In this document: in pieces, positions 12,931 through 37,300 of the stretch
Layout of the letters: each line of letters begins with the position of its first letter
Position numbering within the stretch: position 1 is the first letter of the stretch
Assembly (NCBI GenBank): GCA_041585205.1
Contig: JBFHCO010000001.1
Coordinates: forward strand, 1-44,045
DNA length: 44,045 nucleotides
DNA from: Candidatus Omnitrophota bacterium
GTDB taxonomy: Bacteria > Omnitrophota > Omnitrophia > Omnitrophales > Aquincolibacteriaceae
Direction: 5' to 3'
Translations under genes and position numbers: made by a program
The notes under the pieces: model-generated
Told to the model about the DNA's origin: nothing
What the model saw: the letters and a program-made list of their open reading frames with translations, nothing else
The model's database searches: none

Positions 12931-12955
12931 CAATAATCACCTTAAGCTAAATAAT

Positions 12956-13389: not shown

Positions 13390-16300
13390 TTACGCCGCCC
13401 GAGCGGTTTCGCGTTTGCCCGCGAATTGTGCCACGATATTGGACAGAATCGCGGAAACTGTTATTTCCTGGCTGCCCGGCAGGGTAAGATCTCTGTCGGT
13501 TGCGACCACGATGCGGCCTTCGGCCAATTTCACGGCACCGATCAAGACACTTGTGACAAGTTCCGGTGCCGCAAGCCGCGCCGTTTCATCCACGCGTACT
13601 TGCAAGGTGTCATTGAGGGTGAGCTTGCGCGCCGCGGCAAGCTGTTCAATGAAGCCTGTCAACGTCCAAACCGCACGGATGTCGAGCTCATCGGCCACAA
13701 GACGCTTGACCGCCAATTCAGCCGCAAAGTCATTTCGGACTTGAGCCAGCACGTCTTCAGCGCCCGCCATAGCCGGATCGATGAAGAGCACGAGCTGGGT
13801 TTCACCTGTCAATTGTCGCAGGGCCTGTTCGATAAACGCCCGGTCATAAGTCTCGACCGACACTTCAAGAACATAAGCACCCGCCACATCAATATGACCC
13901 GGAACCAAATCCACCACGAATGGTACCAAGTCGTTTGTTAATTGAATAATTTCATTTTCAAGATTCATTCCAAGCTCCAATGCACGCTGATTCAAAAAGG
14001 CGATTTCCTGTTTCAATTGCTGCATCGCCGCAGCCGCTTCGGAAAGCGCGACCACTTCGACAAACTCCGTTTCACGGCGTAACTCGGCGCGTTGCACATT
14101 CGGCATGGCATCCATGATGGCCTTGCGGCGCTTTTCGCTGATTTCGCCGCTGGTGACAAGCACGGATAAGGCATCCAAAAGCTGTAAGCGGGCTTCGGTG
14201 GCAACGCGCTTAAACTCGGATCCCTCGGGCTCCGCATCGATGCGTTTGTCCATGGCTTCAAAGACCTGTTCGACCTGAGCCTGAGAAGCGCTCGGAGCGC
14301 CCAGTTTTTCGAATGTTCGAACGGCGCCCTTGAAGATATCGGGATCCGTCTCCTGGTTTAAAACGGCGCGCAGGGTTTCCACTTCATGACCGCTGTAAAT
14401 GCCGTGCTGACGAATGACATCCATGGCTTCGGTTTTCATCGCTTTTACGGTTTCAGGATCCCGCTCATTAAAAAGCAGCCAATGCGTGTAAATCTGCGCC
14501 AGCATTTCACCCGGTACTTTCAACTGTTTTGTCAATCCTTCGCGAATTGTTTGACGGACTGACGCGCTCGTATCGACATCTGCCGGATTGGTAATTTTCG
14601 TATCATTATTGAAACCCAAAGACTCGGTCAGGAGCTGAACAATGCGCGTCTTCACATCCCTTTCGGCTTTGACGCCGGTGCGGACCAGCGCATTGACGGC
14701 ATCCACACGAACGCCTTCCTCGCCATGTTTCAAGCCCTTCTGATAAATATCAGTTAAATCGTTATTGTTCACTTCAACCGTCATCGACCGTAATGCACGA
14801 ATGGCTTTACGGCGGACAATGCCTTCATTATCCGTCACAGCATCTGTTAATGCCGCAATCGCTTTCCGGCCCCCCAATTGGGTTAGGGCCTCGATCGCAG
14901 TCACACGCTCTTCCAAGACGGCTGCTTGCGTTTCCTGATCCGCTCCCTGCGGACCCCGGTCCTGCAAGCGCGGAATAATTACATCCGCCACGCGCCGGTC
15001 ACCGACGCGGCCCAAGGCACGAACGGCGGCCACGCGAATTTCAGGATCCGCATCTCCCACTTTGACGCTCAGCGCCTGAATGGATCGCTTATCCGCCAAT
15101 TCACCGAGAGAAGCCAACGCCTCGAGTTGAACGGGCTTTTCGGGGCTTTGCAGAGCCATCACATCAAATTGCACCAAATCTTTTTTAGAGGCGTTGAGCT
15201 TTTTCAACGCAACGCGCGCAGCGAGCCGGACCTTCTCATTCGCATCCTCGCCCACAACTTGACCTAATGCTTCGATGGAGTTGCGCGTTCCTATTTGACC
15301 CAAATTTTCGGCGGCCGCCAATCTGACTTCAGGTTCCGCATCCTCGGTCAACGATTCCAAAAGAGTGCTTTCAACCTGCGCGGCCGGAAATTGACCCAAA
15401 ATACCCACTGCAAGGACACGCTCTTCCGCATCCGCGGTTCTCAACTTTTCCGTCAAAATGCTGACTGCCTCCGGTTTGCGAAGCGCGCCAAGCGCCTGAA
15501 TCGCATCACGACGCACGCCCTGACTCGGATCATTCTGCAGTCGGTCCAGCACTACTTGATAAACAGCATCGCGCAGGGACTCGTCTTTAACACGCGCTAC
15601 CGCATCCGCGATCGATTCGACGATTTGGCGTCTCATCAACGCGGTCTTGTCGGGATCCGGCTGAGTTCCCGGCGCCGGCTTCACGCGGTTTAAAACATCC
15701 GTGTAGATTTCTACCAATTCTTTTTTGTTCCGATACCCTGCTTCCTTCAGGCCTTCGGCGACCGCAAACGCCACATCGGTCACATCATTTTTCTTTGCGG
15801 CAATAGCGCGCATAATTTTATTACGAAGTTCACGCGTTGCCGCGGTCGGCTTTTCGACTCCATCCAATGCCACCGCCAATCTGGCCAAGGCCGTAACCGC
15901 AGCTGCGCGCACTTGCACGCTTGAATCATCCAATCTCTCGATCAAGGCTTCCGCCACGGAAGGTTTGGGATGTTCCAAAACACCCAGTGTTTCGGCCGCG
16001 TCCCGGCGCACCCCCGCATTCGTATTTTCAAGCGCGCGTACATACACCGCGGCCAATTCATCCGGATCAAGATCCAGTTCTCTTAAAACACCCCGCACGG
16101 CATTACGCACGTCGTGATTCGGATCCACGGTGCGGGACTTCAGCGCATTTTGGATCGACGGGGCAATCAGATCAGGATCCGTCTCAGCAATATCCATCAG
16201 GCCTTCCGCCCCTTCCCGGCGTATGGCGGCATTATCGTCGTTATTCAATGATTTCACATAGACATCGGATGCCAAGCGCGCCTTATCAATATCAAGATTG

Positions 16301-19300
16301 CGAAGCGCTTCGGTCGCCGCCGTGCGTACATTCGCGTTCGCGTCCGAGCTGGCAACTTGCATCAATTCGTTCACCACACTGTCCGAGGCGACGCCGAGAT
16401 TACCGAGCGCGGTTGCGGAATCCACGCGGATGCCCGCATCGTCTTTATTTAACGCTTCAAGGTAATGATTCGCCAGCTCTTCTTTAGGAACATTGAAGCG
16501 GGTTACGACTTTGCCTTCATCATCCATTTCCCATAGCGCCTTGGCCGCCGCATTGCGGACTTTTTTAACGGGATCTAATTTCAAAATGGCAAGCAAGGCC
16601 GTCGCGATCTCTTCCCGCCGGTTCAGAGGAATTTTCTTGGTTTTTTCGAGTTCACCCAAGGCCGCAGCCGCTTCCTGGCGGATATTGCCATCCTGGCTTT
16701 CCAAATTATTGAAATAGACCTGTGTCAATACAGCGGCGTCTGTAACGATTTTGGCAAGGGCTTTACCTGCCGCACGGCGTACACGCGCTTCAGGATCCGA
16801 TTGCACGCTCAGAATCAACGGACTTTCGGCAATTTGATTGCGCAGCCGGCCTAAAATCGAGGCGGCCGCACGACGCACTTCACGCGATGCCGTCCAGGCT
16901 TCCCGCTTTGCATCCTCGCGGCTACGCGTCGCAAGTAATTGATTTAAATATTCCGTTACAGGTTTGGATACGGCATCTGACGCCAACTCACGATTGGATT
17001 GGCGTTCAAGTTCCGCCCAATTGCGATCCTGATTCCAACCCTGCTCGCCCGTGACCAGGCGTTCATTTAGGGTATGGACGAACGCGGCAGTCCTGCGGGA
17101 CTGATCAGTAACCGGGGCATTGGCCGGTAAGATGAGGGTCAGGGATTCCGCCAACTTTTCGCGCATTCTTTCATAAAGCGCGACCAAGGCCTTCTCCTTG
17201 GTTCCGTAAGCTTGCAATAACACATTCTGTTCGGTAGTCAGCGTATGTTTCTCGAAAAGTCCGGAAGGAGTCATTACGGTCACAACCACGCCGTTCCAAG
17301 CGACGCGCTGCGCTTCTTCCAGCCGCTTATCACCTTCGAAATCTTCGGAGACCGAACTGATCATACGCAACCGCTCTTCTCCCGGAAAACTCGGATGCTC
17401 CCAATAATCCACCGCATTCCATCTCTGCTCTGCGATGGCCACATGCACACCTTCGACGGCAGTGCGGACTTGATCATCGGCAAGCCAGCGGCCCACGATA
17501 TCATTCACGATTTGATCGGCTTGTTCCGGTGCGACAGAGGGTTCTTCCGTAGGGGCAGGCGTTACCGGCTCCTCATCCGCGGGCGGAGCGGGCGGAGCAA
17601 CATCAGAAGGCGGTGCGGCCGGAGGCGTCGGCGGCGCAATCAGGGCCAAAATGCCGGGTAACCGGTTGATGAGCTTTCTATAAAATTGCAGAAGCGCTTC
17701 ACGTTCATTATTGCGATAATAAGCCAAGACAAATGCTCTTTCATCCGCGGTCAGCACTTTGGCTAAGATCCGTTCCATCAAGGGTGGTGCGTTAATGTAA
17801 GGAAGCAGCGCTTCTTCATAGGCAAATTGCTTAGCCTCTTCTTCGTTTAATCCGGACTGCGCCATTGCAACGTTCGCTTCATCCGGCCTGTTGGTGGTCA
17901 TCCATTGCCAATGGGACACGGGGTCTTTCACATCCGCCGAGACCCAAGACTTTAAGTCTTGCACGCGATAAACATATTTAAAATCTTCGGTTTGCAGCAC
18001 GCGGTCGGCAATCTTATTGATGCGGTCATCATCCTGCGTTATAACCGGAATGACATACGGAACAGAAGGCGGAGGCGTCGCCGTCACGCCCGTTACGTCG
18101 GTGGTTTGACCCGGAATTTTGGTATCCGCCACGCGGGCCATCATTTTGGTCAAGGATTCCTCTTGCTTTGGTTCCTCAGCAACCGGCTCAGGTTCTTGCG
18201 CAGGAGCTTGAGCCGTTGTGGGTTTCGGTTCATAAGGTTCTTCCAGAATTTGCATATCCACGTCACCCTGCTCTTCGGAAGGCGCCTCTTCAGAACCCGC
18301 AGGCCGAACTTCTTCATCGCGTGGTATTTGACCTTCAACCGGCACGGCCACTTGAGAAACCGGCCGGGTCACGGGTTTATCCTGCTGATCAAGAGCCATG
18401 ATTACCTCCGTGGTAGAAGGACCTTGCTTTTCTTCCACAGGCGTGGGCGCGGGAGCTTCTTCAGCCGCAGGCGCCTCAGTCGGCGCAGGCTCTTCGGCTT
18501 TGTCATCCAGCCAATCCGGCAGCCCTGAATCCGTTGCTTGAGATTCTTCTATCGGTTGAGCAGCGGGCGCAGCTTCTTCGACCGGAGCCGGTGTAACAGG
18601 TTGCTCTGCCGGCTGTTCGGCGGCAGGAGCGGGCTCTGCGGGTTTTTCTTCTTTCATCCAATCCGGAAAATCGTCATCTGATACGCGTGCGCCTTCGGAC
18701 GACGGAGCGGTTTTCGGAAACATTTCATCCAGTGAAACGTCCCCCGCCTCCTTCGGAAGTTCTTCCTGTTTTTCAATTTTATCGAGGGTTCTTAACAATG
18801 CGGAGATTTCGTCATACACGGCTTGACCGATGGCGATTACATCACGTCCTTGAAAACCGTGCGTACGTAAATGTTCCCAGCTCGCCTTGGAAATGATTTC
18901 CGGATCCACATTGACGGTATTGGTAATGAAGCCGAAAATGGCTGTCCCCTCGACAAATTTCTGGCCTTGGGTAATGATAAAATCATGCAATTGTTCACTG
19001 TACTTTTGAACTGCCCGCTGAGCACCGTCTTTGATGATATCAAGGCTTATTTGAGTCACGGCCGGTGCACTCGGCGCCTGCGGGGCCGGAGATGGCGGTG
19101 CAAGCGGGAACTCACGCATCGCACGCGTTGCCGGACGCTGGCTCACAAAACGGACAGCGGCTCCGTAAACGGCTTCCGCTAATTTTAATGTTGCCTCAAC
19201 GCCGTATTTATCCTGCGTATAATACTCACTCAAGAGAATATTAAACTCCCTCAGCGCTTCTCTTTGCGCTCTGACACGCTCCTGTCCTTGCCGCGACAAA

Positions 19301-22300
19301 AATCCCTTAGCCGCCTCCTCTTCCGCGCGGCGCGCTTTAGCTTGAATATTGGAGATAATCTCCAGCATATGCATATGAAGAGACGCATTATCACCCTGAG
19401 CCGTCCGCCATTGCGCGCCCTTGTTGATGAAATCCTCGAGCGGATCGATCAGCTGCTCCTTAGCCGCGGCGTCTTTCACATCAAAGAGTTTTCTCACGAA
19501 ACCATCCAACAGCTCTTGCTGATGGCCGATTTCAATGCTTTCAAAAGCTTTCGTGATCGATTCAAACGTCCGCTCGGGCTGGGATTGAACGTACCGGACA
19601 ACCGCCTGATACAATTCGCGATTGAGCTTCACGGCGCCTTCTCTGCCCTTATAATTATCGTCTCTCAGGAAAACTGAAAATTCCTTATCGCGGATGCCAG
19701 CGCCGGAGCGGTCCTTGCGGATTTGCTCCATCAACTCTCTTATTTCCTCACTGTCCTCGTAGCGAATTTGATTTTTCACGAAATCAGCCAGCCGGGCTCC
19801 ATACCGCTCTCCTTTGACCAGCCGCTCGGCTATAACATTACGCAAATCAACCGCTGCACGCAATTCGGAGCGTTTTTCAATGCGGCCCGCATCCTGCAAT
19901 TTATGATAAAGCGCTTTTTCCGGTTCGCTTTCCCCGCCGATTTCGACAAAAATGGCCGCGGCATCCGCCGCGTTCATCGCATAAGTCATGATCGGATCCA
20001 TGGCCAACCGCTTAATGGCGGGCCAGGCATGCTGATCAAGCGCATACGCTTGTGCTTTGGCGATATCGCCGGGATAACGGGACTGAGCAAGCATGCGCGC
20101 CGGTTCGTCCAGAACTGTGTGCCAGTAAGTATCTATGGATCCGTGATCAGCAATGACGTCCTGTATAACCCACTCGCGGACCTTGTTGATGCGGTCCAAA
20201 TATTCCTGTGGTATTTCTGAAGCAACGCGATCCAAAATGGGAGTTGCGCTTGGCTCTTCTTCCGCCACCGGTTCTTCGACCGGCGCCTCTTCAGCCGGAA
20301 CTGGAGCCGGTGTCGCAGGCGCTGTTGAGCGCGCTGCTATCGCATCCGCCGCTATCTGATGAATGCGACGCTGGCCGAACCACAAGAGCACATACTGCTC
20401 AATCATCAAGTTGGCGTAATTGTTGATTTTCTTCGCATCGGCCTCGGGATGCTCATCCAGCCATTTTTTGAAAACAGCTTCATACTCCCTATCGCCGAAA
20501 ACCTTCGGAAATAGTGTGCTTAAATAGGAACCTCTGATCCAAGTCCAGACACCGATCATATAACCGATAATACCCAGATAAATCGCGCCGTAAATAATCG
20601 TGTTAAAGAATACCGAGAAATACCACGGTAAACGCAGGATTTCAGAAAACATCAACTGTGTCGGCAAGAGAGCGCTCGCGCCGCCGTCACCGGTCGGAAT
20701 ATAAGCGCCGATCATCGGCATACCGGAAAGTATGGGCGGACCCAGCGTAAAAAATGCCGCAATCGCAATAATCGCAACGCCGTGCAGCGCGGCTGTCCAG
20801 CGCGTGCCCATAGCAGCACCGGGATAAGTCGGAGGCGTACCGGGAGTCTTTTGAACGTTTGTCATGCGGCCTATAAAATAAGCGATGCCCGGACCCATAA
20901 TAAATGACGAAATAAGAATCGGGCCTGCGCGCATCACCAAATCAGCCGGAATCACACCCGCAAACAGCGGCCCCAAAAATCCCGCGGCAATTAAAATCAC
21001 CACCGTCGCAATGGAGCCAAAATACACCAATTTCGTTTCAGGTACTTGTTCCTTCTTCATTTTTTCAAATGTTTCTTTATTGATGGTCATGGAAGCGAGC
21101 GGAAACAGGCCGAATAATATAGCCGCAATAATTCCGATCCAGGCATAAGCTGTCAACCCCAGGAACGTAGCCTGCGCGACGAAGGCAAGCGGCGCGAATC
21201 CCGGCAAGGCCAAAAGGACGATGCCCAATCCGATATTAAAGACGAGGCGCATTTTCATCAGATAGGCAGGCAGCGGTAAGGTCCGTTGACTCTCCTCAAA
21301 AGAAGGCCATGTCCCCTCGCCCTTTTTGCCGCTGAGACGCTCTCTCATTTCCTTGTAGACACGAATTGTTGCCATCATCAGTTCATATTGTTTGATGATG
21401 ATTTTTTGAAGATAGACACCGGTCGAGGCCACAAATTCAAACGCGGCCGACGGAATATCAAGGGCGATAAACCATCCGATTTGCTTTGCGGGATATTTCA
21501 CCCAACGGTCGAAAAAGCCGCTGAACTCCCGGGGCGACCCGTCATCACGAAGGGGTGGATTCACAACGGCATAAAGCCGGTTGAGCAATCGGCCGGTAAA
21601 CTTGGTATGCACAAGCGTGATCATGATGAAAAGGAACAGGATTTCTCCCAGAAACGGGAAGGCCACTTCCAACGTTCCGGGATGAATCATCGCATAGAAA
21701 GTGATGATCAGCTGAACCAACCAAATCGGTTCCGAAAAGAGTCCGCGTGTGACCTGATTTTCCGCGTATTTTCCGCGCAACGGAATTTTCGGAAGCCGGT
21801 CATATTTTAATTTTTCAATCGGGGCCCTTAATTTTCTTTTATCATTATCTGTCAGCGCAGTATTTTGCTCGATCATTTGCAATATGGCGTCAGGGGCCTC
21901 CATCCCGGCCATGACATTGGTCACATATCCCGTATCGGACGGATGGAAAATCGTCGCCGGCAGACCGGGTACGGCTAAACGCTGCAACGCAGCGCTCAGA
22001 TTGTTTAATTCAGCGTTCACGCGTGCGTTCAGATCCGTAACATTCTCCGCGCCCGCCACAATATTGCTTATCTTTTCTTGATACCATTTTTCAATCGCTG
22101 CAAGAATTTGATTATTCACATCCGAGCCTGCGATGACGCCTGTCGCGCGAATTTGCTCGAGCAGATAATAAACGATTGCGGCCTTGATTTTACCCTGCCC
22201 CACCGCATGATAGAGTTTGTGGAAAATGAACGCGAGCACACCCGAGAGAGCGCCCACACTGAGAAAGAGAGTCGCGTAGGGCGCAAGAAAAGCCGTGATG

Positions 22301-25300
22301 AGAAAAGCAGCTGAGATGACCCCGAATGTTAAGCGGAATGCACCTAAATTCCTCAAGGTGCGGTTGATGGGCGTGTGTAAGACGACAAAATTCCGGAAAT
22401 CAAAGGTCGGCAGCCATTTTGTTTCTTCCCGGCCCAATTCATCCAGAAAGTTTGCCGGCGTGGATTCGAAGATGACGGCATCCGGCACATAAGCGACACG
22501 ACCGAAAATGTTCCGGAAGGCGTCTTCACTTTGCACATAAGTGGGGTCCAGCGCAAACATCAGAGCATACTGGTTATCCTTGGCTTCCGATTCAAAATAC
22601 AGCCTGGGTCTTACGAAATATTTACCTGCGCTGCGAACACCGCCTTCGATCTTTGCGGTACCGAGCTGAGACATGATACCCAAGCCCTTATTCGGAACCT
22701 CTTTCAAGGCATAGGCGTATAAACTGACCGCTTCGTTATAATAGGCAATACGAGCCTGCCACACCGAAAAACTGTCATCCATGGTGTTGATCATACGGAG
22801 AATGGTGTTTGCGGCGGTGTAATTGTCCTGGTCCAGGATGACACCGTTTTGAATGAGTGGTCTATCCCGGCCGTCGCGCGGACCTTCATTGCGCAGTCGC
22901 AATAAATTCTGGGCCCCTGCCGCCGTGGTCATGATACCCACACGTCGATTATCCGAAGGATCCACTCCGATTCTGACCACACCGCTCGGATCCTGCAAAT
23001 ATGCCGGATGACCCGGGGTCGGCATCGGATCTTCTGACCGAAGACCATAGATCCAGCCTTCAGTGACGGCGTCTTCGCCTTCCGATTGCATTTCAAGCCA
23101 ACGTTCCCACTTGAGGACGTTATGGGGCTTACCAATCCCTTTCATCATCATCACAATAAAACGGTCTTTCACATGCTGCGGAATCGCAGGATTTCCATCA
23201 TTGTCTATGTCGTTATTTTCAAAAACCATTCTGCGTAAAATATCCTGATAACGCGCCAAAGTCGCCGCATTATTACCTTCGGCTTGCAAAATCATGACCG
23301 CTACAAAGTTGTTTGAATTGACCGACTTTAACAGATCAATGTTCTTTTGGATGACTTCAATCAACTGATTGTCATCCGTAGGACGCAAGGGGCTGATCAC
23401 TTCAAAGCTCTTTTCGTCAGTAATATGTTCGGGCAATATCGCTGCATTCAATGTCGGACTGACGCCCGGAATGAACCGCGGCAGCAGCAAATTCACAAAA
23501 AACTTGCCGATGTTGATTTCAAGCACGACATGAATCAAATAAACGAAAGTAATCGCGTACAGCGCCAGCACAACCGGATCCACAAAACTGAATCCGAATA
23601 TGAGAATGGCCGTCGCGGTAATAAATAAATTAAGGAATGTCATCACAACATGATAAGGAAAGCTTCTGTACCATATTTGCCTGAATTCACGGCTTTGCTC
23701 CACCGCGTTCGGATCCGGCGCGCCTTCCAATACCGGTTTGGCCCACGGACGCGTTGCGGCCAACCGGATAAACTTAAGAAATCCGACCGCAATGGTAAGG
23801 ACGGAGGCCGCGATCAACGCAAGCGTTAAATTACCGACGGGGGTTCCGCTGAAATAACGCTGACCGAAGATTTCAACACCGCGTCCCAAGAACAGGTTGT
23901 AACGGGCCTTCTCGATTTCAGACCAATGCTTTTGCCAGACGGATTCCGGTACTTCCTCACGCAGACGGTCTTCAAGGACGTTTTTATACATTGAATTCAT
24001 GGGTCGCTGGAACCGTTCCATTTTCTCATCCGAATAATCCCAGGTTTTCGTCAATCCAATGCGCTTGGTGGGATCCACCATCAATGTATCAGTGATAACC
24101 AGAAGCTGCTTGCCGGTAAGCCACAGGTTCAAATCATAGGTGCCGCGGGGCGCTTTGGTGCGGTCGGAAGTCACGGATTTCGCGGCGTCTTTTTCGGCAG
24201 AATCCACGATGAGTTCGCGCAATCTGAGGGTTTGATCGGCCAAATTTTTGAAAGCAATCGGCGGAATCTGCTTTTCCACCATCACTGCCGTGATATCATC
24301 GGCGGCCGTATCCGGAAATTCGACGCGTTCGACACCCAACTCCTTCAGTCTGCGGTTCAATGTATTCAATTCGGAGAGTACAACGGGTTTCACGTCTTTT
24401 GCCGTGATCTCAATTTTGGCCGGAATTTCAGCCAGACCGACCTGATACCATCCGTCCACCGAATAAAGGATGCGGTCCATCATAGGTCCATCCACCGCAA
24501 TGTCTTCCTTCTTAATTTTTTCACGAACCGATATGGAGGTATCAATCCACCGGGTTATTTTTTCAGGAGACACTTCACTCATGAAGGCGTTGTTGCCTAG
24601 CAGTATCAGCTTCTTTTCATCCGGCGTACGGTTAATGCGGCCTAATTCAACCTTAAGATGCGCGCTGAGTTTTAATATCTCTTCCAACCGGCCGAGTTCG
24701 AGGTCCGCGTACTTTTCACGGGTTAAATTCTGAACCTTGGCGTCATAATCCGACAGTTCCTTACGGATGGATTCCGGAATATTGGTATCCTTCAATCGCG
24801 GTTCGAGATATCCGCGGATGCGCGTTTCTGTTTCTTTCAATATTTCGCTTTGGAGACCGTCACGGGAATCCGTAAAATCGACCCTTTCGGCGATTTGGGC
24901 GGCAATGCCTCCGATAAATTCCCATTCTTCCTTGGTAAAGAGCTCGCGGATATTGTCCTTATAGGATTCATAAAGATCCGGCTTCATGATGCGCGCATAT
25001 AGATCGGCGACGCGATGCGGCACCACTTCATATTTATAGATAACGCCATCAGCCGTATAGCCGTCACGTGCCATGAATTTCACAAGCAGCGCCGCTGAGG
25101 CCGAGCTGATTTCAAGGCCATAAACCTCCTTGGCTTTGGCTTGGACGGTCAAGATTTCGTTCAAGAGACCTTTACGGTCAGCAACTCTGGCCTGTGTTTC
25201 AAGGGCTTGGGCATTTCGTTCCAGACGAATTTGTTCCAGCACCTTTTTCGCTTCCAGTTCTTCCAATATTCGGGGAAGCGTATTAAAGATTTTGTCATTG

Positions 25301-28300
25301 GCACGCATCATGGTTTCGCGGCCGGAACTTTCCAAAATCACCTCGAATACGCCCGGCGCGACCTCACCGCGCAGCTCCCAAAGCGTCCGGTTCAAGTGAT
25401 CACGGATATTCAGGGTCTCGTCCCTGTTATAAATACCCGGCGCGGCCAAATCCATAAACCCGTAATACACGCTGCTGCTGCGCTCAATCAAGTCGCCCAG
25501 GGTCGTTTCAACATCACCTTGGCCATACCCGCGCTGGAGCATCTCCGCTTCAAGCTGTTTGAATTCTTGTGTCAGGGTATAAATCTGATCTTTGGTAAGG
25601 ACTTCATCCAAATCCTGCTGCCATTTGTAGTAAACGAAAGCCCGCCGCTCGTAATCTTCCAGATTCATCAAAGAAAGTACTTCTTTATAAGTGGAGGCAA
25701 GCCGCCGCGATGCCCGGTTCATTTCATATTCGGATAAGGGAATATCGTCCCCGCCGCGAAGCTCTCTTAAGAATGAAGGCAGCAAATGCCACGGTAGGAA
25801 TTTCTTGTCCTGTGTTTTGTAGACTTCAGATTGCGTAAAGGCCATATCGCTAAAATCCTGCGAAAGCCTTTTGTCAAGATCCTGATACTGGTTCAGACCC
25901 TGTTCATGGAGTCGCGCTACATATCCTTCTACCTGGCCGCGGCGAGTCGGAAGCGGAACGTCTTTGGCGATCTCCGGATTTTCAAGACGGCTTGCGACAT
26001 CCACCTGCATCCGGAATGCCATACGCCACGTTTTGGCGGAGTATTTAATGAACTTACCCAGTGTTTCCTTGCTGAAATCGGGATTTTTCTTGAGACGTTC
26101 GACCATTTCCCCCACCTGTGAATCAAACATCTGAATGGCTTCTTCATAGACATTCTTGTTATGAATCATAAAAATTCCCTGCAAATAGGTTTCTACGATC
26201 AGACGCTTGAATAGTCGGTCCTGAATAGCCGCCGAAACCTTCGGATCAATTAGGGATTCACCTTTTTTGAGTTCCTGGAACATGCGTTCTGTCCCCATGT
26301 AAAAGGCCTCTTTGTCATCGACCTTCTGATCCCGCAGAACCGCCAAGTGCTTCAGGAGTTCATCACGTTCTCCGGCTGTTTCCCAAGGTTCGGGTGATTC
26401 GTTATTCGTGATTTTCAGCTTAACTTCATCAATCAAATGCGTTCCGGCGCGTTCGCGGATGCCGCGGGCATAAGCGATGTTTTCAAAAATGCGGCTGATA
26501 ATTTCACGATTGCCGAGGTCAATTCCTGCTTCCGGGTATTTCTGCGCCAATTCTCGCAGCTGATTGACGTAGAAACCGATGGCTTCCTCCTGAATGACTC
26601 TGCCCCATCTATCCTGGGCGGCGTGAAACACATTCAAACGGTGTCGTAGTTCGACTTTGAGATCTTCCACCGTGTAGGTCTTGCCGCTTTGTTCCGCGAT
26701 CTTATTCATGCGGTCCACAAAATCAGTCCAATGCTTCAAGGCGCCGATGTAGTCCCCGATAAAGCGGGGATCTTTTCGGTATTTGTCCGCGGTATAATCA
26801 ATGCCCTCGATGGTTTTGTGATACTCATAAAAATTCGCTTTAAATTTTTGATCCACGGCGGGAATGGGTCGTATCAGTTGGCGCATCATTTCAAAACGCG
26901 CTTCTTCCAGTTGGATACGATCCGCTAACGGTACGCTATTCAGCGCGTCCCTTTCGGTTTGTGTTAAATCATCCCGTAACGGCGGATAGGCAACGATCAA
27001 CGAATGGCCAAGCAAAATACCCGCGTCGTCGCCTTTCTTATCGCGCAGATTCAACTTACGTCCCAGCACCGATTCAAGATCATCTTTGAGGTTAACGGCA
27101 ACCTCCAAGGCATCGCTGTAAGCTTGGGTACGATCCTCAAGAGACAATTGATTCCAAACATTTTGCGCATGCGGTGTGGCAAATTCCCAGCCCCACAAGG
27201 CCTTAATCATGAAAGCATGGCCGAAGACAAATCCGACATCATCGGGATTTTCAAGATCCAGCTTAAATCCAGGCTCATCTAAAGCGAGTAATTTCTCAAG
27301 ATTCGGGCTGATCTTGTAGGCGATGCCAAGCACTTCCTTATAAACTTCGATTCTTTGCTCAAGCGGAAAGCCTCTCCATATTCTAATTACGTGGTCCGGC
27401 GCTTCCTTCCAGCCGGAATAACCGATGATGGTACCTACATGGCCCATCAGGAGGCCGATATCGTCCGGATGATTAAGGTCGAGCTTGCCGCGCAGTTCCT
27501 TCACGCGGTCCTTTAAGGATCCGACAACATAGATGATGAGCTCAAGCTCCGCTTCGGTCAGGCTATAGCGGCGCGCATAGTCATACCAAGCCGCCACGAC
27601 GCCTTTTTGACGCGCATCTTTCAAATCAAGCGCCGTGTAAAGCCCCGACTTTTCGAGGATCTCGCGGATACGCGGCGCCTTATCGTAAAAGTCAACGACC
27701 GACGCATAAACCGCGTCGATATCCCCATCCGTCATTTGATCAAGCGGTTTGCCGAACTTCTCAGCGGCGCTTAAAGCCATAAAGACCGTTTCGCCCATAA
27801 AAAGGCCGTCGCGCAATTTTTCCTTTTCGGCCTCAATATTCTGTTCCAGCTTATAGATGACATTCGGCCCGAGCGTCACACCGGCTGCTTTTTGAGCTTC
27901 AAGATTCGCGATCAACGCGCGCAGAAGGCTCGCATCCGGAAGCGCGATCAGCGCTTCATCGCTTGCTTCGGGATAAATGGCGTCATAAAGTCCGGCGCGG
28001 TTGTCTTTTAATTTCTTAACGATTTTGACAAGATTCTCAAGACGCGCCAGGCGCAGCTCGGGATCCGCATCATAAAGCGATCCCGAACGGCTCAAGAATT
28101 CCCACGCCGTGATAATGGCGATATCTTCCACATTGCCGTGCAGCGCGAGCGTCTTACCGGTCGGATCTTTGTAAAGATCCAAGATACGGTTACGGGCTTT
28201 TTGGAACTCGGCTAAGAGGTCCTGATCCCGGTTGAACTTGAAATGAATCCGGAAGGCTGTATCCGCGCGGCTTTCTTCCACCCATTTAATGAATTTGTCA

Positions 28301-31300
28301 CGGATAAACTCCGCGTCCGTACCGGCGGGATAAACCTGCGTCCACTGTTTGTAATCAATGCGGTCGGCGGCTTCCCTGGCATCAGCGGAGAAAACACCGT
28401 CTTGCTTCAAGAACTCCAGATCCTCACGCGAAACATTCAGCACACCCGGTTCGAGCATTTCCTGAATTTGTATTTTTAAGAAAATGACATGTTTTTGAAT
28501 GGCCCGCTTAATATCCGGGTTCACTTCCAAGGTTTTTTCAACGATGTTATCCGCCGTGGCATGGGGATCATTCAGCATCCCCTCGGGCAAGTGGGCCAGT
28601 AAGCGCATGGCGAAATAATCATAAAACCCAAGCAAGCGCAAATCGACGGCCTTGTCCAACGCCGTTGCCGTATCCAGGCCCATATAGCCTTTTTGCTCGC
28701 TCGTTAAAGTGTTGGAAAGATGCTCATCCCAACGCACACCTAATTGCGCCGTACGGCGGACACTTTCCGGAAGTTTATCAATGAGAGCTTGAATCTGACT
28801 GACCGGCGCATTCGCATCCGCGCGGGCACCGAGATAACCTTGCGCCGTCAATGCTCTCAAGAGCTTAATCCGGACCTCATTTTCGCGCTCCGTCAGCCCG
28901 CGCGCCTGGCCGGATTTGACCAGAATGTCATCCACAAAAACCGCCTGCGTCACGACATCGCCGATTCTTTCCTCTTGGGTGACTTTATCCGTCACTTTGG
29001 TCGGCTGCGTTAAATTGATTCCGTAGATGCCCTTGGCGACTTCGGCGGCATCCGCGCTTAAATTATCATTCAGAACATTTGTTTTGGGCGTATGCACCGG
29101 CGCCTTGATTTCAACGGAATGCTTTTGGGTCAGGGTGCGCTCGACGCGCGTGCGCTGATCCCCCGCCTCCTTGGTAGCGGCATCCAGCGCCGTGCGCATC
29201 TGTTCCATGAAAGCGATTTGCTGTGCGATTCGAGCCCTCTCGGCCACAACTTCCTCGGCTTTCACGGGGACTTCCGGAGCGCGTCTTGCGATTTCACGGC
29301 GCAGGAGCTCTTCACGTTCGCGTGCGGCGACGGTTTGCTGGTCGGCGCGGTAAGGCAGTTTTTCATAGCGGACTTCCCGCAGAATCTGCACGCCGTCCTT
29401 TTCACCGAATTGCTGCAGCGTATGGCTCAAATTGTTGACGGATTTGTTGAAGTCATTGTGGGCCGCAATCAATGAAAGTTCGGCAATATTTTTGCGGTCC
29501 AAGGCCGTAAACAAATCGGAGCTTTCAATTTTTTTATCAAGATAAAGCCGCAGCATATCCTGATAGCGGTCCTGCGCCATCACATAATCGCCCAGTCTTT
29601 GATAGAGATTTCCTTGCGCGCGCAGATAAGCATAGTATTCGTTCAAGGCCTGGAAACGGATCGAATCGACAAGACTCGGTACCTGGCTGGCTGCGAGTTT
29701 CTGCTTCATTTTTTCGATTTCAATGCGGGCATCGCCTTCGGCGTTCAACAAGTGCAGTCGCAGCTCAATTACCCCGTAAAGGAAAGGCTTCACGTCATCA
29801 ATGGTTCTGTCGCCGAGCGCACGCTTTAAATCATCCATATCCCGGCTGCTGCCGAATAACTTTGATATCCCGGCGGCAAGCGCCACGCGGGATGAAAGCC
29901 AGCGTTCCCAGGTCGACTGAATTTCCCTTAATTTGCCGATGTCCATATTCAGCAGAAAGGCTTTCAGCTGCGGGTCATTTTCGGCAAGCCGGACCAAAGC
30001 CTCGGGTGTGGTCGGGGCCTGATCCACGATCGCCTGCACCACATTCTCTTCCGCCGGAACGACCACTTCCTTTGCCTGCGGAATATTCGTGAGGGTTTTA
30101 AAATTCGTCAGCGCATTCTGATAAGCCCTTTCTTCGGTCGTCGCTTGATACTGCTTTCTTTCGTGATAATCCCGGGCCTTGTTCTGCGTGGTTTCATCGG
30201 CTTCCGCACGCTGTATCATTTCATACAGGGCTTCGAGTTCATCCGCCTGCAGCTGAATCGCATTGGCGAAACCGCGCTGACGCGTCACGTCATAAATCAT
30301 GTTGTGCGTCACGCGTTTTGTTTCATTATTCAGATAGGCTTCTGCATGTTCGAGCTGTCTGGTTTCAAGATCAGCAATGTTATGCAGCTGGCTATACAGG
30401 GCTTCCAATGGATGATAAGCAAATTCAATACCGAAAGAACCGGTAAAGAATCTTTCCGTGCGCCCTTGAATGCCCGGGATCGGCGGATTCGGAGCCGGTT
30501 GAATGATGGGCAATATCGACGGAATATCGATATCCTGAGGAATCAAGCTTGCCTGCGCGCTGATCGTAAGATGGCGCAACCAACGGGTTTTGTGCCTTAA
30601 TTCCGCGACCGCTGCCGCCGTTTGCGTGTTGAGATAAGCGACGCGATTCACCATCGTATCTTTGACGCCTTCCACATTTTCCGGTTTAGCCAGATCCAAC
30701 GCACCGTCCGTGCCGCCCATTTGCTCAAAGCGCCTTTGCTGCTCGTTTGTGTCCGCGGGCGTGATTTGAATTCCCTCGCGGGAGGCAAGGTTTAATTCGG
30801 TGAGCGCATGATTCAGGGATTGAATCTGATAATTATCTTCACGCTGAAGCGTATCGAGCTCCTGCGATAATTTCCAAAGTTCCGCCAGATCGCGGTCGGA
30901 GGTGCCGGCCGCTTTCAATTTATCCGCGAATATTCTGAGTCTGTTTTGCGACTCATCATGAAGACGGCGGCTTTCCGCCAACTGATCGCGTGTGTTAAGA
31001 TTCGTTCTTTCAAGCTGATCCTGATAGCCCCGGTTTCCGTTGCGGGCGGCTTGAAGCGCCACATCCGCCTTGCGAATGCCGTACTCCGCGACCACGCGGT
31101 CGACCGCCAAATCGGACATTTTGCCGAAATGGGCCAATTCGACGGAGGTGAATACGCCGGGTCCGGTGCGAAGCAATAACGGAACCAGTTCCGCCCGAAT
31201 GCCCTGATGCTCATTGGCGATGTCGTAAACGGCCCAGGCGATTAAGAAGTCTTCTTTCGGAATGCGGTCCACTGCGCTCGGGTCAAAATCCTTCACGACG

Positions 31301-34300
31301 TCGCGAAAGGCTTTGACCAACTCCTCGCGGCTGACATCCTTCCCAAGGGCGGGTAATTTGCCGTATTCAAAAGCGACTTGATCATCCACTTTTAAACCTA
31401 AAGAATACTTATAAAGTTTGGCCGCCCGCTCACGTTCTTGATTCAGGGATTCAATGGCTTTATTGATGGAGGCCAGTTCCGTTTCAGCCCATGTAACACT
31501 GGCGTCTATCCGCTCTCTTTGAGCCGGAGCTTTTTCGCGGCGTGCCGTATATTGCTCGATTACCCTTTCATAAGTTGCTTTCTGAGATTCAAACCCCTGA
31601 ATACGCGAATTGATCTGGCGCAAGATGATATGCAGACGCGCCACATTTTTAGCAAATTCAATTTCATTAACTTTTTGCACTTCGCCGGACTTGAGCATGG
31701 AGTGATAAAGCAATTCCACTTCCCCGTGATATTGCTTGCCGATCAAAAATTCAAAATTGACGCCCACACCGCGGTCCGGCAACCCGCGCGCAAATCCCTG
31801 CGGACCCGCTACGTCATCCGGGGCAATTCTGAAGGCTTCCGCGGTGACTTTGACCAGTTTCGAATCACGGAATGATAAGTAATCCGCCGCATTGATGGTT
31901 CCATCCTCTTTCAGCCGCCTGCTGAGATCCTCGACAAGCTGCTGTTCGCGCTGCTGATACATACGGATTTTCTCAAGGTATTCGAGGCGTTCCGACCAGT
32001 TCAACTTGTCTTTTTTCGATTCAAATTCCTTTTCAAGCTCGATGCGCGCTTCACGGACATCTTCCACCCTGTCCTTCCATATACTCGGCATGGCCTTGTT
32101 CATGACGCGGTCCAGTTCGGCATACTTTTCATCTGCATTCTTATAAAGATCCTGAACGTGATCTTTCAGACCCGGTACGTATTTGCCGTCCTGCCAATAA
32201 CCGTTCTTTAAAAGCGGAATTTGGTACTGAAGTTGCGCGCTTTCTTCTCTTAAGGCTTCGATTTCCCTTTGCCTGGATGCAATACGGGCTTCTTTGGATT
32301 TGGTCATAATGAACAGAAAATAAGCGTCACCGACCGTGTCAATTTCATTTTTGAGCGTTTCGATCCGTTCCGCGATTTCAATGATCCGGTCTTCCTTCTC
32401 GCGAATGGTGACCGTCGCTTCTTCGACGCGGTCGAGAATTTCCCATTCCTTATTCTGCAAGTCTTTGAGTTTTTCGGTGACATCGCCTTGATCACGGATC
32501 AGCCACAAATGCCAAAAACCCAAAATGCCCAGGAAGGCGTGGTCATCAAGCTTGAGCATCAGTTTGATTAAGACTTCTTTGACTTCCCTTTGATGGACGC
32601 GCTCAATGGCATTGCGCCAATCCATGCCGTGTTTTTTCAGATCTTCCTTCCAGCTCTCGCTGTTGAATTCCTTGTGGTCCCGGACCGGCTGTTCAAATAA
32701 ATTGACATAAAAATCCTCGTTAAACCGGCCGGCGCGCACGTCGTCCTTATATTGTTTGACGCCCTTGTCCACCGTTTGCGTCAACTCGCGCAATTCAATG
32801 TTCACCCTCTCCACATTGTTGACGGCATCACGCAAACTGAGCGACGCCCGTTCGAAACGTACCTGGGCCGCATGCAGCATTTCCGAGCTTTCACCCTGCT
32901 TGAAACGCTCCACGTACCGGTCGAGCATTCCGCGGGCTTTGGAATACTCTTCCTGAGCAAGTCTTAAATTTTCCTGAGCTTCTTTGACACGCCCGCCTTC
33001 AAAAACTCCGGGCTCGATTTCCCTGCCGCGCAGGTCATCCAACTTCTGCTGAATGCGGTCGATATCACCGAAATAAATGAAAAGATTGCGATAAGCGCGG
33101 TATTGATAAGCCAGAGGCGGGAGGGGTTCCTGTCCTCTCTCAATGGCAATCGGCAGCCACGCGCTCCAGCCGGCCGATGAAATCGGATCCACGAAGAACG
33201 GGAACATGGCCCGCAACCTGAAGATCACCGACCAGGACTCGCGCGCATTGGTGAGAACGCTGTCCATCTGGCGCAGCTCGCGGTTGAGTTCCGCCAGTCG
33301 GATATCCACGATTTGTTCGCCTTCTTCAGCCGGTTCAATGCCGAATTCACTCAAAATTTCTTGCGTGGCCTTTTGAAGTTCCGCTGTTTTTTTGGCGGGA
33401 TCATTGTAAAAGTCCGGATTGGAGTAACGAGGGTCCAGCGTAACTGTGTTGGCTGAGACGCCCATCAAATGCGCAATGCGGTTTTTAATGTCGGATTCCC
33501 ATTCCCGTGCCACCCTTAAACGTTCCTGCAAAGCGCGCTCAAGACGGTTGGCATTCCAGCCGGCATAAGCGTCAAAGCCCTTGCTGTAGCGTTTTTTAAG
33601 TTCCTCGAGCGTTCCTTTTTCATTCAATTCCGTCAAAATCGCTTCGATATCCTGCACTTCGCCGACGGCGCGCGTGTAGTCATTGACGAGTTTGGCGGCT
33701 TCGGTCACGGCGCCGATTACTTCTTTCTGGGACATTTTGAATTTGGCGAGCATTTGCTTATCGGCGAGCGCCGGCCGGATTTCATCGGTGGCGTCATATA
33801 AATAGAAAGACAGTTCCGCTCCTACACCCAAACGCACGCCATCCGAAACCCACGTCGAGGGAATATTCAGAAAATCAGGAATGCTGGCTCTGGCCTCAGC
33901 GATCAAATCCAGTTTTAGAGAACGTTCCGCCTTGAGCGCATCGGCATTGCGTTCGGTAAGCAGCATGGAATTTTCGCGCGGAATGGCATGAGCCAGAACC
34001 GCATATTTGGCGATTTGATCAAAGGTCAGACCTTCGGCCCCGGGATGAATCGGCAGATCACGCACGGTGTCAATGCGCGGCCCGTCAAGCTGGAAAAGAT
34101 CCGCGGTCGGGTCGAAACGCACATCCACGACGCTTTTAAAGGCCCGGCCCAGAATTTCATGATAGCGGTAAAGGTCCGCAATTTCATCCTTGGTGCCTTC
34201 CGGCTGCGGGTAATCATAAATGACATAGACATCGACAATGGTTTTATCGAGCGCGGCGCGGAATTCGGCTTCCGTGGCGCGATAGATCTTGCCTCCCGTC

Positions 34301-37300
34301 AAGCCGGAAAGCGTCTCGACGAAATAATCGAGGAATTTATTCTTCAGGTCCTTGCGTTCATCGAGCTTGCGGCCCACTTCCCCCTGACGGAAAAGAACAT
34401 CCGACAAATCCTTGGCCAGATGCTCGCGCAGCAAATTGCTGTTGAAGCGGGATTCGATAATTTTCGTAAAGGCATCGGCCAATTGATCATGGAATTCATA
34501 AAGTTTCGCCACGTCGTCGCGGGAATAATCCGGCTGCGGATATGAATACAGGACATATTTGTCTTTAACGGTTTTCTCAAGCGCGGCTTCAAAATGTTCG
34601 CGCTCGGCTTCCCAAATCCGGTTGTCCGTCGCGGCTTCGAGCTGCTCGATAAAATAGTCGACAAATCTTTGTTTTAAATCGACGCGGCCGCGCAGCAAGC
34701 GCCCGACAGCGCCTTCAGGAATCAAGGCATCGTCCAATTCTTCGGGTAAATTGGAGCTGAATTCTTTGTAAAGGATTTCGCGGTATCTTTGAATTTCGGC
34801 TTCACGCACCCGTTGCTGGCGTTCGAGCTCCCTCAGATCCTTTTGACGCTGTTCAATCGCGCCTTCCAACGCTTTATCAAGGATACGCGTCATCCAGTTT
34901 GCGAACCCGCCGACCGGGCCGCTTTTGGCGGCTTCTTTCGCATCCTCCACGACTTCCACCGGGGGTTTCGCATTGCGAATGGCGTCGCTCAAGGCACGCA
35001 CGCGGTCGTTTAATTCGGTGATGCGTTTTTCATCCGCAGGCACCCTGCCCGCTTCTTCATTGAGCTGGGCGGTGGCCGCACGGCGCATTTCGCGCAACTT
35101 TTCTAGCGCGGCTTCAAAATCCTTCTTGGTTTTGGCGTCCTGACTTTGACGAATGACCTCTTCCGCGCTTTGCAGAGCCAACCGTTCTCTTATCCGGGCG
35201 GCTGCCGCTTCCATTTCCGCTAAGAGTTTATCGACGTCCGCTTCCGGCACTTCTTGAGGAGCAAGCACTTCCGGCTTGGGCTCTAATTCTTCAAGCAGCT
35301 TTTCTTCTTCGCGCGCTACTTCGACAGGCTCTTCCGTCACGGGTACCGCTTCAGGAGTGACGGCAGGCGCTTTCGCCTCTTCCTTTTTGGTTGCCTTGCC
35401 GTAAATTTCAAACAGCTGCAGGCTGTAAGCCATTTCATTCAGTAGATTGGCTCTTTGTTTGTCATCCGCCGGGCGATTGGCTTTGACTTGCGCGAGTTCA
35501 TTTTCAAAGGAACCCGCGATCCGTTCATCGATAACTTTCCGCTCGCGCATATCCGTCAGCACATTTCCGAATTGCTGAAGGGTTTGAATTTCAGCCGAGC
35601 GCCAGCCCTGCAGGGCCAAATCGCCGGCCTCGGTGTGAACGCCCATCCAGCCCAAAACAGAGGCCGTGGCTTGCATGGTGGTATCGGAAATACCGATACC
35701 GGAATAGGATTCCGCTTTGTTCAGAAGATTATGGCCCCAGTTGATGGCGTTTAATTCGACGAATTCAACCGGGACAGAGATGAATTTAACGAGGGGTTGG
35801 TCGCTGCCTGTCACAAGATTATAAACGGGTGTGGCGGTGTATTTGTCAATCCATTGCGCGGCGCCGTAATGCAGCGTAGGGTCGGGCGTTTCACCCTCCG
35901 GGACATGATGACCCGCCAACCCGGCGATTTCAGCGCTCACAATTACCAAACCGCCCCAGGATTTAATGAAAGCGAACCAAAAAGTGCTCAAAGCCAATGC
36001 GGCAAAGAATCCAGAAATCGGGGCAACAACGTAGCGGTAGAAATAGCCGGGCGCTTTGACTTCAGGCGCGACAGCCGGTGGCGCGCGTGGCGCTTCAGTC
36101 ACGACTTCGGCCGGAATGGGCCGCTTTTCGGCTTCGTCCACCAACCGATTTAACAGTGCTTTTTCGGCGCTTGTCGCAAAACGGACATGCGGCAATAAGG
36201 AACGCAGTTCCAAAACCACATTGCGTTTTTGATCTTCCGGCAAATTGGTTGAAGCGGAAATATCGGTGATTACTTTACGCACGGTCGCGAAATCCAAATT
36301 GGGTAGCTTCTTTAATTGATTGATTTGTTCGATGACGGCTCTATCAATGCGCGCGTTGGACAACTTAGCGGAAAAGTTCGGAATCGTGAGTAAAAATGCT
36401 AAAATAGCTGAGTTGGTAAGAGAACCAAGGGTCAAGGCATTCGCCAAAGCACCTACCACGATTCCTATAATAGGAATTCCCGCTACCCCACTCACAATAG
36501 CCGGGCTCAAAAGGCCGATACCCGCCACGCTGGCAGGCATCAACACCGTGACAAGGCCCATACCGATCGCGCTGAATATAGCCAACTTCCAGCGGCGGTA
36601 AATAAATTGAGATGTTGAAGCAACGAAGGGTTGAATGAGCCATTTGTTAAGTCCGCGGCCGATGCGGCTTGGAACTGAATTGCCATAGCGCATCTGTGCC
36701 GCGCGGCCGACTTTTAAATCCTTGGCATTCAGCATGGCGCCGGCCAACACGTCTAAAGCAATTTCACGCGGCAGCGGCGCAATGCGGCTGCGGAACCAAT
36801 GAAAGCTGATTTTGCGGCGGTAAAAACTGAAAAAGAAGGAATCCAAAAGATGCGGACCGAGCATTAGGATTTTTCCGATCAACTTCCCGATAGATAAACG
36901 CGGAGAGTTGAAAAAAGACTTGATGACATAGCCGGTCTTGGCCAGCAAGGTGTTGCCCGGTATGGGTTCTTTGTGCGGCTGCGCATCCCGGCGCACATAA
37001 TGAAGTTCGGCCGCCTTTTCAAGCTGTTCATAAACATAGCGCCATTGTTCAAGGGATGCATCGCGCGTTAATCCGGTTACCGCTGCAAGCTTATCCAAAT
37101 CGCCGCTGTCAAATCCGTAAGCTTCTAGAATACGCTGAATAATCGCTTCTTTTTCGGCGTCGATACGAATCGCTTTGACCTTTTTAAGATCCGGCAGCGC
37201 CTCCCCCGCATGCTTTGAGACAATTTCTTGAATGACATCCTGAAGGCCGGGTGTCACCGCAGGCGCCGGAGCGACAGCCGGTTCCGCGGGCTTGACTTCT

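Follow-up and report, generated by a model that had tools for sequence, protein, structure and literature searches.

A divergent membrane-embedded GT-A glycosyltransferase module, probably of the processive-synthase type, within a giant protein of an Omnitrophota bacterium

What does a block of membrane helices, set on either side of a soluble core, do in the middle of a protein of nearly nine thousand residues? The question is raised by contig JBFHCO010000001.1 (assembly GCA_041585205.1) of a Candidatus Omnitrophota bacterium, of which positions 1 to 44,045, the whole stretch analysed, are called the window. The open reading frame (ORF) list gives four large ORFs in the window, all on the minus strand, one of which houses the module considered here:

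13390..40263, minus strand: giant ORF, 8,957 residues (ORF list and translation)

Window positions 20530-23850 correspond, within this single ORF, to residues 5472-6578 of the giant protein. An earlier reading, made from the sequence alone (the sequence-only reading), had seen there the core of a 1,3-beta-glucan synthase of the FKS/callose synthase type (GT48), with a processive GT2 synthase as the alternative. The analysis reported below indicates that residues ~5478-6577 very probably form a self-contained, membrane-embedded module with a GT-A glycosyltransferase fold, of the processive-synthase type, and very distantly related to the GT2/GT84 enzymes Cgs (cyclic-glucan synthase), OpgH, BcsA (cellulose synthase) and the hyaluronan synthases (HAS). 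The module is closest to the Cgs/OpgH branch. By sequence criteria it is too divergent for GT2, GT84 or GT48, and its divergence justifies treating it as a new family.

Homologues of the module are rare and were found by one search only. A word-indexed search of 5.8 billion proteins gave zero matches, whether the query was the sequence alone or the family alignment, and a back-translated contig search with one protein gave none, while an exhaustive HMMER scan of 1.84 billion representatives yielded 42 relatives, the best with ~40% identity (designated P0001 and so on). The unit conserved in this family comprises residues 5477-6010 and 6147-6577. Kyte-Doolittle hydropathy shows hydrophobic stretches at residues 5481-5594, 5982-6017, 6175-6222, 6335-6451 and 6495-6573, the first of which is followed by a soluble region (~5597-5972). 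Hydropathy and the helices of an AlphaFold model give 3 membrane helices before the soluble core and ~9-11 after it, ~12-14 in total, so that the 3-4 and 10-11 hydrophobic segments counted in the sequence-only reading are about right. The module is divided as follows:

23476..23832, minus strand: three N-terminal transmembrane helices, residues 5478-5596 (hydropathy; AlphaFold helices H7-33, H49-84 and H92-125)
22348..23475, minus strand: soluble core with a predicted GT-A fold, residues 5597-5972, ~375 residues (AlphaFold pLDDT ~85-97, alternating strands and helices; Foldseek)
22201..22347, minus strand: post-core hydrophobic helix or hairpin, residues 5973-6021 (hydropathy; model helix H502-550, low confidence)
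21826..22200, minus strand: soluble insert of ~125 residues, 6022-6146, between the post-core helix and the C-terminal membrane block
20533..21825, minus strand: C-terminal membrane block, residues 6147-6577, ~8-9 helices (homologue matches, conservation and model helices)

The three N-terminal helices are also conserved in P0001, P0002, P0004, P0006 and P0008, and the C-terminal membrane block is matched in P0001-P0004 and P0009 with E-values of 1e-52 to 1e-74. The insert at residues 6022-6146 is particular to the giant protein; the relatives span the gap with ~30 residues, varying somewhat from one to another, and model confidence is low in this part.

Structure prediction bears directly on the nature of the core. 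AlphaFold used on residues 5472-5978 as a single sequence gave an unusable model (predicted local distance difference test, pLDDT, of 42), whose beta-alpha-beta pattern was later confirmed by an alignment-based model. The latter, made by AlphaFold2 for the 1,107-residue module with a 32-sequence family alignment, has a mean pLDDT of 76 and a predicted template modelling score (pTM) of 0.78, the core reaching ~85-97. It places a DxD motif at the end of a strand, an SED motif at the start of a helix and an RExxKW motif in a helix after the last strand. A strand-end DxD, a helix-start base and a QxxRW-type helix constitute the usual arrangement of GT2 synthases. The model thus predicts a GT-A fold equipped with a DxD, an acidic base and a QxxRW-type motif, the last two in the variant forms SED and RxxxKW. 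When this model was compared with the PDB by Foldseek, the best 50 of the 375 matches were all glycosyltransferases. Three Cgs entries came first (E 1.3e-6 to 6e-6, ~12% identity), followed by Chlorella virus hyaluronan synthase, BcsA and Xenopus HAS1, the BcsA and hyaluronan synthase entries (PDB 4P00, 5EJ1, 7SP7 and 8SMN) having E-values of 4e-4 to 2e-3. Then came mannosyl-3-phosphoglycerate synthase, GlfT2, GtrB, ArnC and plant CesA. In BFVD, a collection of predicted viral structures, the best named matches were chitin synthases and GT2-like proteins.

The four motifs picked out in the sequence-only reading are indeed present, in the stated order and inside one ORF: the translation has LDQDNY at residue 5810, GGVRSAGK at 5874, SEDAFRN at 5912 and EETKW at 5946. 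Their residues rank among the best conserved columns of the family alignment, which is more than would be expected by chance. With two further elements of the core, they are:

23281..23307, minus strand: strand beta2, FVAVMILQA, residues 5653-5661 (model strand E182-189)
23119..23130, minus strand: KPHN motif, residues 5712-5715, after strand beta3 (K 10/11, P 10/10, H 9/10, N 10/10)
22819..22836, minus strand: DxD motif LDQDNY, residues 5810-5815, with D5811 and D5813, at the end of model strand E333-338
22621..22644, minus strand: GGVRSAGK (family form GGxRSxGK), residues 5874-5881, ~65-70 residues past the DxD (R5877 15/16, G5880 16/16, K5881 15/16)
22510..22530, minus strand: SED motif SEDAFRN, residues 5912-5918, at the start of model helix H442-449; D5914 is the putative catalytic base
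22414..22431, minus strand: REETKW, residues 5945-5950, counterpart of QxxRW, in model helix H468-492 after the last strand

The counts come from the family alignment, in which up to 17-20 homologues cover the core motifs. D5811 is found in all 12 sequences compared and N5814 in 11 of them; because the family consensus is LDADNY, LDQDNY is simply the ordinary DxD motif of this family. In the SED motif, S5912 and E5913 are each kept in 16 of 17 sequences and D5914 in all 17, and in the RW-type motif R5945 is invariant (17/17), with K5949 in 15/17 and W5950 in 16/17. Other well conserved positions are P5625 (12/13) and P5628 (13/14), both in NPLRP, and E5933 (16/17). Q5660, in the ILQA of strand beta2, is present in 12 sequences out of 12. 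From its place in the fold, and not from an alignment, its position would be equivalent to that of the first nucleotide-binding aspartate of other synthases, D179 in BcsA and D527 in Cgs. GGVRSAGK, which is directly followed by Y5882, might bind the acceptor, as its position relative to the DxD and the SED would suggest by comparison with the FFCGS motif of BcsA. Within the GT core of P0002, P0004, P0006 and P0023, between GGxRSFGK and SED, there is a hydrophobic insert of ~70-80 residues resembling two membrane helices, which is unusual for a GT-A domain.

Conservation extends to the C-terminal membrane block, where the stretch PLRGxYAExxVTRGxFSExxW...PGxLE...GE is kept in the family, including R6173, G6174, W6181, P6195, G6196, E6199 and E6207. 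Its segment QVTRGLFSEPIW (residues 6170-6181, window 21721-21756), at the start of the block, has the consensus LVTRGxFSExxW, with R6173 in 19 of 20 sequences, G6174 in 17 of 20 and W6181 in 23 of 24. It recalls the FxVTxK gating-loop motif of BcsA.

Sequence comparison points in the same direction as the model. A profile built from 13 family members and run against 177,635 distinct PDB sequences matched two Cgs sequences and nothing else (E 0.036, over ~45 residues around SHD...RW). In this alignment SED falls on S-H-D739 of Cgs, and R5945...K5949-W5950 on R770-Q-H-R773-W774. A further stretch, colinear with the first and below threshold alone, aligns LDxDN with L-D624-A-D and pairs D5811 with D624. 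In Cgs, D527 and D624 coordinate uridine diphosphate (UDP), D739 is the catalytic base and R773 the arginine of the RW motif; they are the equivalents of D179/D246, D343 and R382 of BcsA (PMC10901819). Among the individual enzymes tested at the sequence level, E. coli OpgH (MdoH) is the best relative: hhalign aligned the family with it at P 1.8e-4 over 153 colinear columns spanning the DxD, SHD/SED and PxNxLDELxRxxxW. The pairs are LDADS/LDQDN, SHD/SED and EELPPNLLDELKRDRRW / ESTPANFLDELGREETKW, SED falling on SHD and REETKW on RDRRW. The same alignment was obtained against a 90-sequence OpgH family profile (P 2e-3), while the controls E. coli PgaC (P 0.74) and E. coli BcsA (P 0.085) were not significant. 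Taken alone, this sequence-level link to Cgs and OpgH is no more than suggestive.

Several observations weigh against the assignment to the processive synthases. A Pfam scan, in which the whole giant protein was searched in eight pieces with a reporting limit of E<=1, gave zero matches between residues 5401-6650 and Pfam-A, including PF02364 (Glucan_synthase) and every GT2 model; the two profile families to which the sequence-only reading had looked are therefore both without a match at this limit, and none of PF00535, PF13641, PF13632 and PF13506 gives one above threshold. NCBIfam likewise has zero matches in the module region, and a phmmer search of that region against all PDB sequences also gave zero. 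Pfam searches with 13 family members returned noise, one member reaching E 0.18 to PF00535, far below the cut-off. The sequence similarity to known synthases is confined to the C-terminal half of the core: hhalign found no significant similarity to OpgH in the N-terminal, Rossmann-like half or in either membrane block. The sequence statistics are marginal by themselves (E 0.036; hhalign probability 13-48%). In the structural comparison the global TM-scores stay low, at 0.2-0.25 on the query, since a long model with several parts is poorly superposed as one body. Finally, a glutamine, Q5660, stands in place of the first nucleotide-binding aspartate, a lysine in place of the arginine of the RW motif, and the second aspartate of the DxD is missing in distant family members. 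These three differences in the active site mean that the activity, the donor or the chemistry may differ from those of the known enzymes. Four of the distant relatives, P0013, P0015, P0016 and P0020, have YDxGN or MDAGI at the DxD site and retain SED and R...KW, and the N-terminal half of their core is undetected by phmmer. These proteins may have a different metal or donor arrangement, or be inactive.

Comparison with individual enzymes shows how far the likeness goes. Cgs shares with the module a GT-A core docked under membrane helices and the colinear motifs DxD, S-x-D and R-x-x-(R/K)-W and, as in the giant protein, its synthase is part of a very large multi-domain membrane protein. It differs by having 6 membrane helices against ~12-14 here, by the low identity (~12%) and by the first aspartate and the arginine of RW, replaced here by Gln and Lys; its cyclase and C-terminal GH94 phosphorylase domains have no counterpart in the 8,957-residue protein (Pfam, E<=1). 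OpgH, a GT2 glucosyltransferase of osmoregulated periplasmic glucan synthesis, is likewise an inner-membrane GT-A protein with helices on both sides of the core, and shares the motifs LDADS/LDQDN, SHD/SED and E-x-PPNLLDELKRDRRW / ESTPANFLDELGREETKW. Unlike the module, however, it matches Pfam PF13632, PF00535 and PF13506, and it is a stand-alone protein of 847 residues. With BcsA and HAS the module shares its general plan, in which membrane helices follow a GT-A core and a QxxRW-type motif is borne on interface helices; compared with BcsA, the module has SED for TED and RxxxKW for QxxRW, and Pfam finds no PilZ domain.

Three other explanations have to be weighed. The module could be a non-processive membrane GT-A enzyme, either one of the GtrB/ArnC/DPMS type, a polyprenyl-phosphate sugar transferase, or one that glycosylates the giant protein itself. 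Foldseek does list GtrB, ArnC and PcManGT (E 0.02-0.2), the module has no known polysaccharide product, and the nearest relative, Cgs, autoglycosylates a tyrosine as primer (Y694, on the IF1-homology loop; PMC10901819). The processive synthases nevertheless score clearly better than GtrB and ArnC (E 1e-6 to 1e-3 versus 1e-2 to 1e-1), and ~12-14 helices are to be compared with 2-4 in GtrB-type enzymes. Moreover, the RW-type motif R5945...K5949-W5950 is kept after the last strand and aligns with the RW of Cgs and OpgH. Such a motif marks processive GT2 synthases. We regard a non-processive enzyme as improbable. A little less probable still is a former synthase that has lost its catalytic activity and survives in the giant protein as a membrane anchor or scaffold. 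In its favour are the substitutions of the first Asp and of the RW Arg, YDxGN for DxD in distant members, and a divergence so extreme that Pfam finds no match. Against it, D5914 (17/17), R5945 (17/17) and D5811 (12/12) are invariant, and all the catalytic-type motifs are among the most conserved positions of the soluble core, a pattern that argues for an active site, and not a scaffold, as the target of selection; since the glutamine at 5660 is itself invariant, a specific role is suggested for it too.

The GT48 core that headlined the sequence-only reading is the least tenable of the three and was rejected: the strings LDQDNY and SEDAFRN resemble FKS motifs and the soluble core does lie between membrane blocks, but there is no PF02364 match at E<=1 in the giant protein or in 12 relatives, the best 50 of the 375 Foldseek matches include Cgs, HAS and BcsA and not a single FKS1 chain, the sole PDB matches of the sequence profile are to Cgs, and the consensus LDADNY is that of an ordinary DxD. 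Some resemblance is to be expected, as FKS1 itself has a GT-A, synthase-like core; what it shares with the module is the general layout only, a cytosolic GT-A-like core between membrane blocks in a large membrane protein. The alternative offered in the same reading, a processive GT2 synthase of the kind that makes cellulose or cyclic glucan, fits the fold, the Foldseek matches and the motifs, and falls short in that no GT2 Pfam model is significant. The broader proposal, a GT-A core resembling polysaccharide synthases, set in a multi-helix membrane block and fused within a giant protein, is upheld by the model, by Foldseek, by the Cgs and OpgH alignments and by the Pfam matches to other parts of the protein.

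These other parts bear on how a synthase might work within the giant protein. The TolC-like and HEAT parts that had been noticed from the sequence are real, and the region immediately before the module is also conserved:

29419..30000, minus strand: TolC-like OEP domain, residues ~3422-3615 (Pfam PF02321, E 2.4e-11, 44 bits against a cut-off of 22)
23884..26676, minus strand: conserved helical region directly upstream of the module, residues 4530-5460, ~930 residues, co-conserved with the module
14629..16626, minus strand: HEAT-repeat region, residues ~7880-8545 (Pfam HEAT_2, E 8e-58, 10 stretches; also HEAT and HEAT_PBS)

An OEP match, weaker, is also found upstream of the module in P0001; the OEP region of the giant protein gave zero matches against PDB sequences. 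The helical region is kept together with the module in P0001, P0013, P0015, P0016, P0020 and P0025, and has no Pfam match and no credible PDB match. A match of residues 4530-5470 to WzzB, a polysaccharide co-polymerase, at E 0.05 was put down to chance, and was lost in the family-profile search. Pfam detects in the giant protein no porin of the BcsC/PgaA type, nor the combination of a tetratricopeptide (TPR) or other repeat scaffold with an outer-membrane beta-barrel porin (BcsC, PgaA or AlgK/E type) found in synthase-dependent exopolysaccharide secretion systems such as Bcs, Pga and alginate; one TolC-type OEP repeat and the C-terminal HEAT repeats are present instead. By its fold and motifs, the module could fill the place of the inner-membrane processive synthase of such a system. 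Because the N-terminus of the giant protein is signal-peptide-like and the first helices have their basic loops on the side of the core, the GT core would be cytoplasmic and the ~4,000 residues upstream of the module, including the TolC-like domain, would be periplasmic. Hydropathy reveals a second cluster of ~4 hydrophobic helices far upstream of the synthase module (residues 1228-1433, window 35965-36582), which bears on the overall membrane topology of the protein.

The embedding of the module in a giant protein is not peculiar to this genome. Most of the 42 relatives are fragments on short contigs or parts of proteins of 2,000-8,000 residues, from metagenome-assembled genomes (MAGs) of Omnitrophota, "Planctomycetia" and Elusimicrobiota (P0001 is from a Candidatus Omnitrophota MAG and P0013 from an Elusimicrobiota MAG). 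A pattern scan with a tighter alignment, in which each GTDB species was represented by a single genome, yielded no more than six loci, in an Omnitrophota MAG (L004), in 'uncultured Planctomycetia' MAGs, one of which has two copies, and in unclassified bacteria. In the full-length relatives, of 5,233-7,990 residues, the order of N-terminal domain and module is unchanged; shared with the giant protein are this N-terminal domain of ~570 residues (E 5e-153 to P0020), the helical region 4530-5460 and the module, P0025 alone sharing the C-terminus in addition. Since the architecture is kept across relatives, the fusion is a conserved design and not an assembly artefact. Downstream of the module, in the same polypeptide, P0003 has a PPDK_N domain, and in P0013 an SLT transglycosylase domain follows the module. 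On the contig of P0003 (L003), the next large gene, at 16095-20620, encodes at least 2,863 residues and carries the phosphoglucomutase domain PGM_PMM_III, which hints at sugar-phosphate metabolism near a homologous module.

If the module works as its relatives do, the following mechanism may be proposed. With the three N-terminal helices the chain would reach the cytoplasmic side, and there the GT-A core would bind a nucleotide sugar, D5811 and D5813 of the DxD holding the diphosphate through a divalent cation. D5914 of the SED would act as the catalytic base, activating the acceptor hydroxyl in the standard inverting mechanism of GT2 enzymes, while R5945...K5949-W5950, on an interface helix, would touch both the diphosphate and the last sugar of the acceptor. 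Growth would proceed by single sugars. The downstream helices (residues 5973-6021 and 6162-6577) could then provide a translocation path to the periplasmic side, as in BcsA and HAS, or serve only as an anchor, as in Cgs, whose soluble domains all lie in the cytoplasm and which does not thread its glucan through the membrane (PMC10901819). The analysis establishes the class of fold, the closest relatives in structure, the conserved residues of the catalytic motifs and an architecture that recurs in the giant relatives; the catalysis itself, the sugar used and the product made, the orientation in the membrane and any cooperation with the TolC-like and HEAT parts are predictions. Our best guess for the product is a beta-glucan, for the sole reason that Cgs and OpgH are the nearest relatives.

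The genes next to the giant ORF show a further link among large proteins of this locus: three consecutive genes open with one paralogous domain of ~500 residues.

38539-40263, minus strand: paralogous domain, giant protein residues 1-575
8995-10719, minus strand: paralogous domain, residues 1-575 of a 3,178-residue protein
11359-12933, minus strand: paralogous domain, in a 524-residue protein

Residues 13-572 of the giant protein and 8-534 of the 3,178-residue protein are 26% identical (E 4e-37), and the 524-residue protein matches the 3,178-residue one at E 2e-18. This domain, which has a signal-peptide-like start and no Pfam match, also heads P0020, P0025 and P0028; an exact-sequence look-up of the 524-residue protein returned no record. 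The 3,178-residue protein (1183-10719, minus strand) contains a permuted dikinase unit at residues 2296-2774 (~nt 2398-3834), in which a PEP-utilizers phosphohistidine domain (residues 2296-2398) precedes a PPDK_N ATP-grasp domain (2484-2774); the protein has no domain binding phosphoenolpyruvate (PEP) or pyruvate. The relatives of the unit in the PDB are PEP synthase, proteins of the rifampin phosphotransferase type and pyruvate phosphate dikinase (PPDK). This domain order is that of the glucan-water dikinases, which would fit a glycan pathway.

Giant proteins of several thousand residues with many membrane helices have been described in Omnitrophota, with HEAT_2 and PPDK_N among their common domains, in a study that nowhere mentions glycosyltransferases (West-Roberts et al. 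2023, 10.1101/2023.11.21.568195). In a 2026 preprint (10.64898/2026.06.07.730766) the only domains of this sort mentioned are soluble ones of sugar metabolism, GT1 and starch synthase among them, and in the library covered by our text search no membrane-embedded GT-A synthase module is described for Omnitrophota giant proteins. The giant proteins of Omnitrophota and of neighbouring phyla are almost wholly unannotated and their roles are debated. A conserved and probably catalytic glycan-synthase module gives a rare family of these proteins its first testable function, glycan synthesis at the envelope. It also adds to the GT-A membrane synthases a very divergent branch that current Pfam and NCBIfam models do not detect, and in which unusual active-site residues, a Gln at the place of the first Asp and a Lys in the RW motif, could indicate a different donor or mechanism. 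The giant protein and its relatives of 5,000-8,000 residues might even be envelope-spanning polysaccharide machines made of a single polypeptide, in which the glycan, possibly a beta-glucan, of a divergent Cgs/OpgH-like synthase in the inner membrane would be passed to the protein's own helical periplasmic part of ~4,000 residues and to its TolC-like duct, and in which the dikinase-bearing paralogue might modify the product; we hold this to be rather unlikely. To our knowledge, every synthase-dependent system assigns synthesis, scaffolding and passage through the outer membrane to separate proteins. If the fusion with the TolC-like domain is functional, it would represent a new way of organising polysaccharide export.

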